64,000 nucleotides of DNA from an uncultured Alphaproteobacteria bacterium (GCA_963544995.1 CAUUHH010000001.1:31465-95464), one strand, 5' to 3'; shown: positions 13,410-18,489, numbered from the stretch's first letter. The notes: generated by a model from the letters alone, not told the origin. Made by a program: numbers and translations.

Positions 13410-13787
13410 TTATTTTGTTTTATTTTCAGTAGGTTTTAAAGAAAATAGAACCAAGAGAGGTTCTTCGGCCTCTATTGTAATGGTTAATATTTCATCGTCC
13501 CGTTTGAAATTTAGTGTGTTTGCAGTTTTAAAGGTACTTTTCCAACCAAGAGATTTTAATGTTTCATCATAAAACTTTATAAATTCATCTTTTTTAACGC
13601 TGGAACTTGAAATATACTGCTCTATCACCCTAACATCTTCGGTATCAAATGATAATTGTTCATGTTCTGTAAATCCGTCTTGAAGAGGGATATCTTCGAA
13701 AGAGGAAATAAAATTTGCAGAATATGCATTAAATGTAAACCCCATAAATAACATAAAAAATACAAATAAATGTTTCATAATTTTCAC
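13410..13787 (-). CDS. Small secreted hypothetical protein, last gene of the virB8-9-10 operon.
   Basis: 125 aa with a signal peptide (MKIMKHLFVFFMLFMGFTFNAYSA). Start is 11 nt after the virB10 stop, same strand. Confidence 0.4.
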   Translation of the reverse strand: MKIMKHLFVFFMLFMGFTFNAYSANFISSFEDIPLQDGFTEHEQLSFDTEDVRVIEQYISSSSVKKDEFIKFYDETLKSLGWKSTFKTANTLNFKRDDEILTITIEAEEPLLVLFSLKPTENKTK

Positions 13788-13797
13788 CTTTATTTAA

Positions 13798-16074
13798 TTA
13801 TTCATCCTTTTCTTCGTCATCTTTTTCTTCACCACCACTATCATCTCCACCACCAGAAGAGCTATCTTCTGCTGGATCTTCTTTTGGTGCGATATTAGTA
13901 TTATTGTTAAAATTTTCTCCTATAATATTTGAATTCTTACTATCATTTTTAAATTCATGCTTAACTGGTTTATAGATATTATTATCATCAACATTAATAA
14001 TATCATCTCTTTTTGGTTTACCTTCTCCATCACCTTCACTTCCACTTGATTTTACTATCTCAGCTATTGTATCATTCGCAGTAAGCATAATGTCTTTGTT
14101 TAAAAATACCTGTATTCTGGTTCCGGCAGGTACGGTAAATGGTATGGTTTGTTTAGAGCTATCCTCTATTAATTTTTGCATAACACTTTTGAAATTTTGT
14201 TCTACCTCGGCCTTTATTTTATCACGTGAACTTAGATTTCTAACCTCAGTAGTATTATTCCAAACATATCCATTACTGTCAGCGCCTTTGGTAATAGTAT
14301 TATAAGTATTATCACCTCGTGTTACACGTGTTACGTATTGTGATGATGTTGGAAACAAACTTTCCATTGCAACGGGAAGAGCACTGTAAAGTAATGGTTT
14401 TAAAAATAATTGTTTCATATAACCAGTATCGTTTTTACCAGGAACACCTGCCCGTCCCTGTGCATCGGCAGAATAATTTCCAACTGCACCTAAATTAAAT
14501 TCTGCACCATCGGGCCGTATCAACCTGTTCCAATTTATATTAATTTTTTCGACTGCCGTAATATTATTAACATTTCCTTCTGCGATACCTATCAATTGAG
14601 TGCCAGCTGGAACTATTATAGTTCGACCATTGCCACCAAAGACATTTTTTTCAACTGTTGCTGTTATTTCTTGCTGATTTCCGGTGCTACTAGATAAAAA
14701 TATCGCCCTATTTAAAACGGCAGGAATAGGTTTTGATTGGCGAAGAACGTAACGTTCATCCTTTGGTTTACTAGATAATTGATCAAGGCCTGTAATAGAA
14801 AAAGGAACCTTTTTTGCCATTAGGGCATTTTTAATACCAAGTTTATCAGTTATTTGATATAAATCCTCTTCACCATCTTTACCATATTGGTCTTTTTTAG
14901 GATCTGCCTTTACCAATTCGCGATTTTTCATTATTTGTGAGAAATCAACATTTTCTGGTTGACTTTGTTTAATAATTTCATCTAGTAAAGGTAAGGTTAG
15001 TTCAACCCTTTTCTCCTCTGATTTTTTACTATCTATATTACTACCCTTTCCTATTATTGCGCCGGTCCCTGCCGCTTTTATCATGCCGTCCTCTTCCTGT
15101 TGACCTATAATACGAGAACAATTAGGTGCGAAAACCTTATTATCACCTTGGACCCAACCTATAAATACGCCAGAAAAATCATATGCCTTTGATGCATATT
15201 TTTTACAATCATCTGGTAAAATTTCTTTTTTTGGTTTGGAAGGAATAACCTCCTGAACGTCCGTTATTTTAATTTCTGGTTTTATTTCTGTGTTATCATT
15301 TGTATCGGTATCAGAATTAAAAAAGTCATCGTCCTGTTTTGAAGATTCCTCTTTGTTTTCTGGTTTTATATTTTCGATGGAAGATACGATTATTGGTAAA
15401 TTTACCTCTTTTTCACCCAATAATTTATCATTATTCATTTCATTATACTTTAACCTTAAAAAAAAGCTTTTATCCGTTTTTTCAGTTGGATTCCAAGTAA
15501 TATTTATTACACAACTGCTGCCTGCATCTATATTAGAACGGCTGGTACAATCATTTTTATCAACATTAAGCCCGACAACATTTTCAGTTAGTTTGGCATC
15601 AATTACTTTTATTGGATTATTTAAAACATAAACCATTACTGATTTAAAAGTTTCCTCACCAATTTTTTGGTTTTGTATTTCGACTCTGTCTGGATCAAAT
15701 GAAATTACAGGAGGAATATATGGAATAGAAGTATCATCATTTTTTCTATCATTTTGTCCCATTTGCATCTGAGATGTAGGATTTGAACCTTCAATTTTAT
15801 TTGTAATCTTTTTATCATTATCAGTTTTTATTGGTTCATGAACGCCAGCCTTTCTTTCCTGTTCCAATATTTGATTCATATTTTTCGTGGAACGGATCAG
15901 CATTACTATAACAAATGTTATAATCATAACACTGGCCGTGAAAATTAAAATAGAGTTAGTGCGTTTTATTGAAATGGCAGTAATGCTTTTTTTATCATCA
16001 GGAAGAGTATTTTCCTTTTCCTCAGCAACAGTTTCTGTGTTAGTTTTTTTTAATGATTTTTTAAATAGCCACAT
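13798..16074 (-). CDS. virB10: Type IV secretion system protein VirB10/TrbI family, unusually large (758 aa).
   Basis: N-terminal cytoplasmic segment plus TM (ILIFTASVMIITFVIVMLI). C-terminal barrel domain with diagnostic …RTIIVPAGTQLIGIAEG…WNRLIRPDGAEFNLGAVGNYSADAQGRAGVPGK…. About 280 extra periplasmic residues and an acidic G/D/E-rich ~80-aa C-tail. Confidence 0.8.
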   Translation of the reverse strand: MWLFKKSLKKTNTETVAEEKENTLPDDKKSITAISIKRTNSILIFTASVMIITFVIVMLIRSTKNMNQILEQERKAGVHEPIKTDNDKKITNKIEGSNPTSQMQMGQNDRKNDDTSIPYIPPVISFDPDRVEIQNQKIGEETFKSVMVYVLNNPIKVIDAKLTENVVGLNVDKNDCTSRSNIDAGSSCVINITWNPTEKTDKSFFLRLKYNEMNNDKLLGEKEVNLPIIVSSIENIKPENKEESSKQDDDFFNSDTDTNDNTEIKPEIKITDVQEVIPSKPKKEILPDDCKKYASKAYDFSGVFIGWVQGDNKVFAPNCSRIIGQQEEDGMIKAAGTGAIIGKGSNIDSKKSEEKRVELTLPLLDEIIKQSQPENVDFSQIMKNRELVKADPKKDQYGKDGEEDLYQITDKLGIKNALMAKKVPFSITGLDQLSSKPKDERYVLRQSKPIPAVLNRAIFLSSSTGNQQEITATVEKNVFGGNGRTIIVPAGTQLIGIAEGNVNNITAVEKININWNRLIRPDGAEFNLGAVGNYSADAQGRAGVPGKNDTGYMKQLFLKPLLYSALPVAMESLFPTSSQYVTRVTRGDNTYNTITKGADSNGYVWNNTTEVRNLSSRDKIKAEVEQNFKSVMQKLIEDSSKQTIPFTVPAGTRIQVFLNKDIMLTANDTIAEIVKSSGSEGDGEGKPKRDDIINVDDNNIYKPVKHEFKNDSKNSNIIGENFNNNTNIAPKEDPAEDSSSGGGDDSGGEEKDDEEKDE

Positions 16075-16111
16075 AAATAAATATCCGTTTTAGCACCAAT
16101 TTATTTTTTTA

Positions 16112-17623: not shown

Positions 17624-17691
17624 GTTTGATGCCTTACTCCTTTATAAAATAAATCTATACGCAACCTGTTAATAATACAAGTTTTTTGTTT

Positions 17692-18342
17692 TTAAAAATA
17701 TTCGTAACTGTTAACTTTAAATCCAAGTGGATTTATCCATTTATTAACAGGATTTTTTTTAAGGATATTATCCTTTATAAAGTTAGCTGTAATTTTTATA
17801 TTTTTTTCAGAAAAAACTGGGTTTAAGCCATCGTTTGTTGTGGTTTTTACCTCTATATTTGCAGTCCATATTTTAGATACTGGTTGAAAATTTAAAGTTT
17901 TTATATTTATTGTTTTTACCAATTTATCCCTATTAATTAAAGATTGTTTATATTCATTACTTTCAATAAAGTCGGTATATAATTTTCGTTTTGAAAAATT
18001 ATATAAGTTTCCATTTACTCCCCATAGTTTTTGCATAGTAGATGAAGAACTGTATAATGTTTCGCGGTCTGTTATATAATTAGTTATATAATATTTTGCA
18101 ATTTCGTAGCCTATACTGTCTTGCTGTATATCATAATGGTCAGCTAAATCGCTTATACGCTTTACGACTATACTATTTACTTTTTTATCAATTTCAGATA
18201 CAAAAAATGCCTCTAATTTTGGGGTGGGAGAAATATTTCCAAATGATAAAAATAAAACCATATTTGAAACAAAACTGATTACAAATAAAGTAATAAGGAT
18301 ACGAAAGATCCATAAATATCTTTGTTCATCAAGTTGTCTCAT
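17692..18342 (-). CDS. virB8: Type IV secretion system protein VirB8/TrbF family.
   Basis: Bitopic, with TM WIFRILITLFVISFVSNMVLFL. Periplasmic domain has KYYITNYITDRETLY (cf. VirB8 KYWLSQYVIARETYD) and C-terminal NPLGFKVNSYEY (VirB8 NPLGF motif). Start taken at MRQLDEQ… (SD AGGAAGGA upstream). The longer ORF-track start at 18420 is possible. Confidence 0.75.
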   Translation of the reverse strand: MRQLDEQRYLWIFRILITLFVISFVSNMVLFLSFGNISPTPKLEAFFVSEIDKKVNSIVVKRISDLADHYDIQQDSIGYEIAKYYITNYITDRETLYSSSSTMQKLWGVNGNLYNFSKRKLYTDFIESNEYKQSLINRDKLVKTINIKTLNFQPVSKIWTANIEVKTTTNDGLNPVFSEKNIKITANFIKDNILKKNPVNKWINPLGFKVNSYEYF

Positions 18343-18489
18343 ACCCCAGTTCCTTCCTATTAGATTTTGGATTTTAGAAAATTGTATTTTAAATTGCAAG
18401 TAATAAACAAAATACATCATACTATGATAGAAAAAATTATAAAAAATTTGTTTAATATTTACTTTTGATATTGAAGATTATTTTTTGCT

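Follow-up and report, generated by a model that had tools for sequence, protein, structure and literature searches.

A virB8-virB9-virB10 module with a fourth gene in an uncultured gut alphaproteobacterium as the probable islet of a scattered chromosomal type IV secretion system

Do three genes of a type IV secretion system (T4SS) that lie together among housekeeping genes, with no ATPase gene beside them, represent one part of a scattered system or a core complex that stands on its own? The question is raised by positions 13410-18420 on the minus strand of a 64-kb stretch of DNA from an uncultured Alphaproteobacteria bacterium (GCA_963544995.1, CAUUHH010000001.1:31465-95464), referred to here at its full length as the window, all coordinates being positions of the whole stretch. 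An earlier note recognised VirB8, VirB9 and VirB10 in this region and offered two readings of it, a dispersed system like the rvh T4SS of Rickettsiales with a new accessory gene, and a core-complex-only derivative. The analysis supports the former, through a VirB11 found in relatives, a second islet in the window and a conserved, clade-specific fourth gene, here called X; the latter is not supported, since VirB11 in relatives, the second islet and a conserved cytoplasmic tail of VirB10 all argue against a core alone. The region is thus best read, with fair though not full confidence, as an islet of a scattered, vertically inherited chromosomal P-type (VirB-like) T4SS of a gut alphaproteobacterial clade.

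The module consists of four closely packed open reading frames (ORFs) separated by intergenic gaps of 68, 37 and 10 bp (Table 1). Their products carry the motifs quoted in the earlier note, namely NPLGF and YITNYITDRETLY in VirB8, LVLRNGGRLVCI in VirB9, and WNRLIRPDGAEFNLG...GRAGVPG in VirB10, and the hidden Markov model (HMM) searches that it had named as a check returned all three families over the Pfam gathering scores: PF04335 for VirB8 (E=1.4e-10), CagX PF03524 for VirB9 (E=4.1e-18, residues 52-295), and TrbI PF03743 for VirB10 (E=8.1e-22, residues 444-663). NCBIfam models gave the same names, with scores well under the equivalog cut-offs (51.7 versus 217.7 bits for VirB9, and 77.5 versus 220 bits for VirB10). 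Thus, the window proteins are genuine but very divergent T4SS proteins. Searches against PDB sequences returned ComB10, CagY and Xanthomonas VirB10 only, every match being weak. For virB8, an ATG at 18342 is the probable start, giving a protein of 216 amino acids (aa), in keeping with its length in relatives and the cluster representative (214-216 aa). The ORF map also bears out the small secreted protein after virB10 and the convergent miaB gene downstream of it; the annotated form of this protein, X, is 122 aa long and starts at an ATG at 13778, and searches of Pfam and NCBIfam gave no solid family match for it.

Housekeeping genes flank the module on both sides, with secD, gatA, gatB and miaB on one side and a DUF192 gene, rbfA, surA, lptD and lptG on the other. 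The G+C content (GC) is ~30% and uniform, the composition of the module being that of the surrounding genome, and no integrase, relaxase or repeats were found flanking it. Neither virB11 nor virD4 lies inside 13410-18420, and scans for promoters and terminators gave no improvement over shuffled sequence.

About 50 homologues of VirB10 (51 by count) were found (37-53% identity, 660-758 aa), every one from uncultured metagenome-assembled genomes (MAGs) of animal guts (rumen, human, rodent, and termite), the next match beyond that set having an E-value of 7.6e-6. Scanning one genome per species with a VirB10 alignment as query yielded 20 module loci, which range in GC from 0.30 to 0.60; the same scan with a single VirB10 sequence as query returned no loci. 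The order virB8-virB9-virB10-X is kept in about 18 of the 20 species-level loci, with varying flanks, and the ORFs are intact across ~20 species. Identity across the clade is 67-75% for VirB9 (77% for gatB), 37-51% for VirB10, 44-62% for X, and 26-51% for VirB8. This conservation and the retention of gene order indicate a chromosomal module that is vertically inherited and held by strong purifying selection, and that is not a recent mobile insertion. X directly follows virB10 in every clade locus and is absent only from the two most distant loci; plasmids yielded no homologue of it, and the loci of a Sphingosinicella plasmid and of a sister lineage (L038), both considered below, gave no significant match. 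By sequence comparison, X is a clade-specific fourth gene. In one locus (L020), an outer-membrane beta-barrel (Opacity/OMP_b-brl) gene lies between virB10 and X, at 11955-12713.

The earlier note held that virB11 and virD4 had been replaced. Neither gene is within the module, but replacement is an overstatement for virB11, which the relatives suggest to have been relocated rather than lost. In six low-GC relatives, the gene convergent to X encodes a 321-aa VirB11 that matches TIGR02788 over the full model length (E=6.7e-39). Its Walker A motif is intact, and pairwise identity among the six copies is 84-92%. A metagenome scan with these VirB11 sequences found nine further loci, at 79-83% identity, that do not adjoin the module; the solitary copies sit among housekeeping genes, in one locus between topA and clpP. 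Always divergent from virB11, even far from the module, is a conserved four-gene block encoding proteins of ~300 aa, 370 aa (LptF/G-like), ~280 aa, and ~265 aa (secreted). This adjacency is seen in L010-L012, L014, L019 and L022 (at ~13.5-17.3 kb) and in L029-L031 and L034. The 370-aa protein is weakly LptG-like, one other block protein has a sub-threshold NCBIfam match, and the remaining two have no family match.

The block provides a synteny marker, as its last two genes are recognised by tblastn at the right end of the window, in the orientation seen in the relatives. For the ~265-aa protein, the match covers 62601-63212 with an identity of 63-67%; for the ~280-aa protein, it begins at residue 106 and runs from 63536 to the end of the window. 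With these genes in place, virB11 is predicted ~2.5-3.5 kb past the right end of the window. In L030, the block is followed by rpsB-tsf-ruvC-lpxC, which are ~80% identical to 51.6-54.7 kb of the window. A 7.6-kb contig of a near-identical strain breaks off where the window does on its right side.

A second islet, which had gone unreported in the earlier note, lies ~9-11 kb from the module at 27735-29528 on the minus strand, and comprises a gene for a VirB7-like lipoprotein followed by two VirB8-like genes. In tblastn searches against 621 kb of DNA, the lipoprotein matched a 62-aa ORF between two virB8 genes in L038 (E=2.6e-16), where the order is virB8-virB7-virB8-virB9-virB10-virB11. On the Sphingosinicella plasmid, the matching ORF (E=2.5e-10) lies directly upstream of virB8, and the corresponding position on an Erythrobacter plasmid is taken by a hypothetical gene of 68 aa. 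Homology to ORFs at that place in two related T4SS loci indicates that the 60-aa lipoprotein occupies the virB7 position, with no P[ILV]NK motif in its sequence. A VirB7-type small lipoprotein and VirB8, VirB9 and VirB10 encoded together are both traits of P-type T4SSs. The first VirB8-like protein (301 aa) aligned with the VirB8 alignment in hhalign at a probability of 77% (E=2e-5, 150 columns), and its weak BLAST matches among 479 proteins were all VirB8. For the second (242 aa), the clade VirB8 HMM gave E=8.7e-8 in the same 479-protein set, and hhalign a probability of 80% (E=1.4e-5). Neither protein has a Pfam match, the first has no NCBIfam match, and a protein search with both ORFs as one concatenated query returned the self-match only.

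The third line of evidence is the conserved cytoplasmic tail of VirB10, in which L24 and K28 are invariant, with conservation of 90% or more for P25 and S30. The tail, whose conservation fits a cytoplasmic or inner-membrane partner, precedes a transmembrane (TM) helix at residues ~41-63. The helix is followed by a membrane-proximal ASH/PapD-like immunoglobulin-like (Ig) domain (residues 119-234, 15373-15720), an acidic, disordered linker, and a small beta middle domain with two invariant cysteines (residues 285-349, 15028-15222), predicted for residues 289-349 at a local distance difference test score (pLDDT) of ~85. The TrbI/VirB10 barrel (14086-14745) includes conserved antenna helices (residues ~550-640), and the protein ends in a variable acidic tail. 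In VirB9, the N- and C-terminal domains (residues ~40-300, 16724-17506) are separated by a low-complexity variable linker (residues 320-400) from a SPOR-like C-terminal domain (residues ~400-503, 16115-16426), the second half of which (residues 462-501) matches SPOR PF05036 above threshold (E=3.4e-5, 24.5 bits versus a cut-off of 21), in agreement with the earlier note. Column identity to the window sequence among 18 species is 0.81-0.97 for residues 40-300, with a variable block at 161-180 (0.50), 0.67-0.91 for the SPOR part, and 0.13-0.48 for the linker; Cys293 is nearly invariant. X has a beta-beta-alpha-beta4 domain with a PA1624/DcrB-like periplasmic fold. Its best-conserved stretch is an N-terminal peptide, FxSxFE(D/E)IPLQ(D/N)GF, right behind the signal peptide, and this conservation is suggestive of docking on another subunit.

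Are these proteins "atypically elaborated", as the earlier note put it? The extra domains are real, but the SPOR-like tail and the Ig domain are common to complete plasmid systems and uncultured relatives. The closest annotated sequences are on plasmid p1 of Sphingosinicella sp. BN140058 (NZ_CP035502.1) and a plasmid of Erythrobacter aureus YH-07 (NZ_CP031358.1), with identities to the clade of 41% for VirB11, 37-42% for VirB9 (E ~1e-57), and 38% for the VirB10 core; canonical VirB11 reaches ~31% at most. The VirB9 of the Sphingosinicella plasmid has a SPOR-like tail of the window type, RLR(I/V)GP...C...C.VV (RLRVGPF...C...C.VV on the plasmid), the plasmid VirB10 has the TM-proximal Ig domain with the same two-cysteine C...C pattern, and a related VirB7-like lipoprotein is encoded upstream of virB8. 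However, the plasmid operons are complete and conjugative, in the order virB2-(B3)-virB4-x-x-(B7)-virB8-virB9-virB10-virB11-virD4 with a MobA/MobL relaxase, whereas the window genes are scattered and chromosomal. The plasmids also lack X, and their 548-aa VirB10 has no match to the Cys-containing middle domain.

This type of VirB9 is rare on plasmids, being found at E<1e-20 in two of 72,556. An HMMER scan gave 84 representatives at E<1e-30, mostly of 400-620 aa; among 82 sampled proteins of the type, 11 match Pfam SPOR and 18 match an HMM of the clade tail, with many more having a C...C tail by eye. The named hosts are MAGs labelled 'Alphaproteobacteria bacterium', and the annotation is the generic TrbG/VirB9 family. 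The SPOR-tailed VirB9 and the VirB10 Ig domain, being common to the plasmid systems and uncultured Alphaproteobacteria, therefore characterise a T4SS subfamily that has rarely been sampled, and did not originate as inventions of this genome; nor is the SPOR tail a novelty of the clade, as it is also found in plasmid and other uncultured VirB9 proteins. A literature search found no paper linking VirB9 with SPOR, and none that describes these VirB9 and VirB10 domains.

A further variation is found in L038 (11452-21429), where VirB10 appears to reach ~3,300 aa across a pair of adjacent ORFs (1563 and 1749 aa), with ~25 tandem repeats of the middle domain, of which the window VirB10 has one copy. 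This repeat-expanded protein recalls CagY of the Helicobacter pylori Cag T4SS, a homologue of VirB10 into which large repeats are inserted. The window VirB10 has few PDB sequence matches, ComB10 and CagY among them, but the relationship to Cag does not extend in sequence beyond the VirB10 barrel, Cag-specific subunits are absent, and the repeat unit of the window is single-copy.

In organisation, the closest parallel is the rvh T4SS of Rickettsiales (Gillespie et al. 2009, PMC2653234; Verhoeve et al. 2024, PMC11077975), likewise a chromosomal, vertically inherited P-type system of AT-rich alphaproteobacteria, set in islets among housekeeping genes and without relaxase context. Scattering of the rvh type is seen here, the genes being divided between the module, the virB7/virB8-like islet and, as a third location, the solitary virB11 of relatives. 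Both systems have a duplicated VirB8 with degenerate copies that lack NPxG, with moderate evidence here, and in both a copy of virB8 has directly upstream of it the gene for a small VirB7 lipoprotein, the K-x-SP-Cys motif here being like that reported for Rickettsia VirB7 (PMC2653234). In rvh, however, virB8b-virB9b-virB10-virB11-virD4 are contiguous, whereas here virB10 is followed by X, and virB11 stands apart, relatives having it on the opposite strand or at another place. The window proteins are much longer than their Rickettsia counterparts, which measure 158 and 247 aa for VirB9 and 481 aa for VirB10, and a SPOR domain goes unmentioned in the paper that describes these (PMC2653234). Among the rvh hallmarks are duplicated VirB9 and VirB4, multicopy VirB6, and the lack of VirB5 (PMC11077975); the window has one VirB9 copy. 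The likeness to rvh is one of organisation, and by sequence the closest systems found are the two Sphingomonadales plasmid operons. Some of the termite MAGs of the set bear the NCBI label 'Rickettsiales bacterium', which is a label and not a phylogeny.

The host probably belongs to a group of gut Alphaproteobacteria with reduced genomes and dependence on partners, the Rs-D84/Enterousia type (order Rs-D84), an assignment that we infer from habitat, GC, and a variable ATP synthase operon. In most relatives (L001, L005, L007-L012, L014, L019, L022, and L023; ~700-7600 in each), this operon lies divergently upstream of virB8 in the order beta-epsilon-AtpQ-AtpR-a-c-b-alpha-gamma, which we take to be the N-type arrangement. 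The operon is absent from the corresponding place in the window (18343-18529), where the DUF192 gene abuts virB8. Its absence here and presence in relatives fits the report that ATP synthase occurs in only some Rs-D84 genomes, which are under 1 Mb and belong to partner-dependent bacteria; the same genomic description does not mention a T4SS (PMC12306168).

How such a system may work can be outlined from established knowledge of VirB systems. The VirB7-like lipoprotein, VirB9, and the C-terminal barrel of VirB10 would build an outer-membrane core complex, with the VirB10 antenna helices lining the outer-membrane pore and the SPOR-like tail of VirB9, a putative peptidoglycan binder, tying the complex to peptidoglycan. 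VirB10 would be anchored in the inner membrane and span the periplasm, its cytoplasmic tail sensing the ATPases, and VirB8 with its paralogues would nucleate the inner-membrane part. X may be a periplasmic accessory subunit that docks by its conserved N-terminal peptide. The disulphide between VirB7 and VirB9 of Agrobacterium offers a model for a possible pairing of VirB9 Cys293 with the PCAC cysteines of the VirB7-like protein. VirB11, together with VirB4, VirB6 and VirD4 that are presumed to be encoded elsewhere in the genome, would power contact-dependent transfer of macromolecules.

Several points weigh against the reading as a scattered T4SS. VirB4, VirB6, VirB2/3 and VirD4 were not found when the window and related loci (~0.55 Mb) were searched with the plasmid proteins by tblastn and through Pfam listings, and VirB4 is the universal T4SS marker. 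VirB4, VirD4 and VirB6 are likewise not among the window's ten largest ORFs, numerous ORFs around the module, and the ORFs on either side of virB11 in relatives; such of these ORFs as have family matches are housekeeping genes. Candidates of suitable size were discarded, an 811-aa, VirB4-sized ORF beside virB11 in L033 being topoisomerase I, and the two ORFs that come after X in L013, of 612 and 652 aa, being BipA and GyrB. The presence of virB11 in this genome is a prediction from synteny, the gene being observed in relatives; the two VirB8-like paralogues are moderately supported, by profile matches; the Rs-D84 assignment is tentative; and contact-dependent transfer to or from a partner cell is a candidate function, though the one that we favour.

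Might the system instead import DNA? A ComB-like uptake (competence) T4SS, supplying genes or nucleotides to a bacterium unable to make its own, is the principal competitor, and we regard it as unlikely. Helicobacter ComB10 is the best PDB match of VirB10 (E=2.6e-6 with a single sequence, 4.2e-8 with a profile), and the NCBIfam ComB10 model also matches it, but the VirB10 model outscores the ComB10 model (77.5 versus 56.1 bits). The K-x-S-P-C motif of the VirB7-like protein resembles the [KI]KSP+Cys of ComB7 and Rickettsia VirB7 (PMC2653234). A ComFC-type protein (double zinc ribbon and phosphoribosyltransferase) is encoded in the window, and in relatives from termite guts the gene that converges on X is dprA (L018, 4670-5806; L026, 8629-9741). 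However, this adjacency is limited to two high-GC relatives, the genes are convergent and not co-transcribed, and many bacteria that are not competent have dprA and comF. The lack of virD4 near the module would suit ComB, yet VirB11 is kept and very conserved in the clade, so that operation without VirB11 and VirD4, as in a comB6-B10-type operon, is not what is found here; the Helicobacter ComB system, to our knowledge, has no VirB11. The closest full systems, moreover, are conjugative and have relaxases.

That VirB8, VirB9, VirB10 and X might act without ATPases, as a passive trans-envelope or surface/adhesion structure, is quite improbable. In its favour, no ATPase gene is found within the module in ~20 species, VirB4 and VirD4 are absent from all sequence searched (the window and related loci), and a peptidoglycan-binding-type tail and an Ig domain are features of envelope-tethering or adhesive proteins. 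However, both of these also occur in complete conjugative systems and are thus not signs of repurposing. A full-length VirB11 with intact nucleotide-binding motifs, at 79-92% identity in the clade and adjoining the module in six species, is difficult to reconcile with a passive structure, as are the retention of the inner-membrane VirB8 with its paralogues and the conservation of the VirB10 cytoplasmic tail. Least credible is the decay of a plasmid T4SS, or of one from an integrated conjugative element, into a functionless relic, as although the nearest annotated relatives are plasmid conjugation operons and the gene set near the module is incomplete, the ORFs are intact in ~20 species with VirB9 conserved like gatB, the gene order is kept across genomes of 30-60% GC, and the module has housekeeping flanks, no integrase, relaxase or repeats, and the composition of the surrounding genome.

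Table 1. Positions of the features discussed, within the 64-kb window
Feature	Position	Strand	Product	Family or status
virB8	17692..18420	-	longest ORF 242 aa; bitopic inner-membrane protein, NPLG motif	PF04335
virB9	16112..17623	-	503 aa, signal peptide	CagX PF03524 + SPOR PF05036
virB10	13798..16074	-	758 aa	TrbI PF03743
X	13410..13787	-	secreted, 125 aa as longest ORF, signal peptide	fourth module gene
VirB7-like lipoprotein	29346..29528	-	60 aa; lipobox LVSGC, then ELKMSPCAC...PGLPEWL	first gene of second islet
VirB8-like paralogue	28465..29370	-	301 aa, bitopic, no NPxG	probable, divergent
VirB8-like paralogue	27735..28463	-	242 aa, bitopic, no NPxG	probable, divergent
Last two genes of four-gene block	62598..64000	-		synteny marker (tblastn)
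ComFC-type gene	36913..37641		double zinc ribbon + phosphoribosyltransferase	
Two soluble proteins and a regulator	30..1232, 1266..2021, 2056..3054	-	regulator: double helix-turn-helix, XRE type, weak S24 peptidase-like C-terminus	soluble proteins: no family match
Large secreted protein	58895..60427	-	510 aa, cysteine-rich	no Pfam match
Large secreted protein	37635..39287	-	550 aa	no Pfam match
Desulfoferrodoxin-type gene	50757..51116			superoxide reductase family

Elsewhere in the window (Table 1), the two soluble proteins encoded near the left end look paralogous, sharing a D/SxYKKYLxxFGxxGxxLYxK motif at opposite protein ends. The two large secreted proteins could be surface or secreted factors, and the desulfoferrodoxin-type gene is consistent with an anaerobic gut lifestyle.

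For the scattered, vertically inherited T4SS that we consider the most probable, a more speculative possibility, put forward tentatively, is that it represents a second, independent domestication, in which a rare conjugative T4SS of the Sphingomonadales-plasmid type became a scattered, essential chromosomal organelle, gained X, and came to serve partner attachment and the exchange or extraction of macromolecules in a genome-reduced, partner-dependent host order outside Rickettsiales. If true, this domestication would be convergent with rvh and would challenge the archipelago-type T4SS as a purely rickettsial signature. The subfamily offers a comparison case for how the scattered rvh organisation could have risen from a conjugative operon. 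It also provides natural variants of the core complex, with a SPOR-tailed VirB9, an Ig-bearing VirB10, a CagY-style expandable repeat, and an extra periplasmic subunit. If the host is of the Rs-D84/Enterousia type, a T4SS in which VirB9 and VirB11 are conserved like translation genes would be an obvious candidate for the organelle by which these bacteria interact with their partners.

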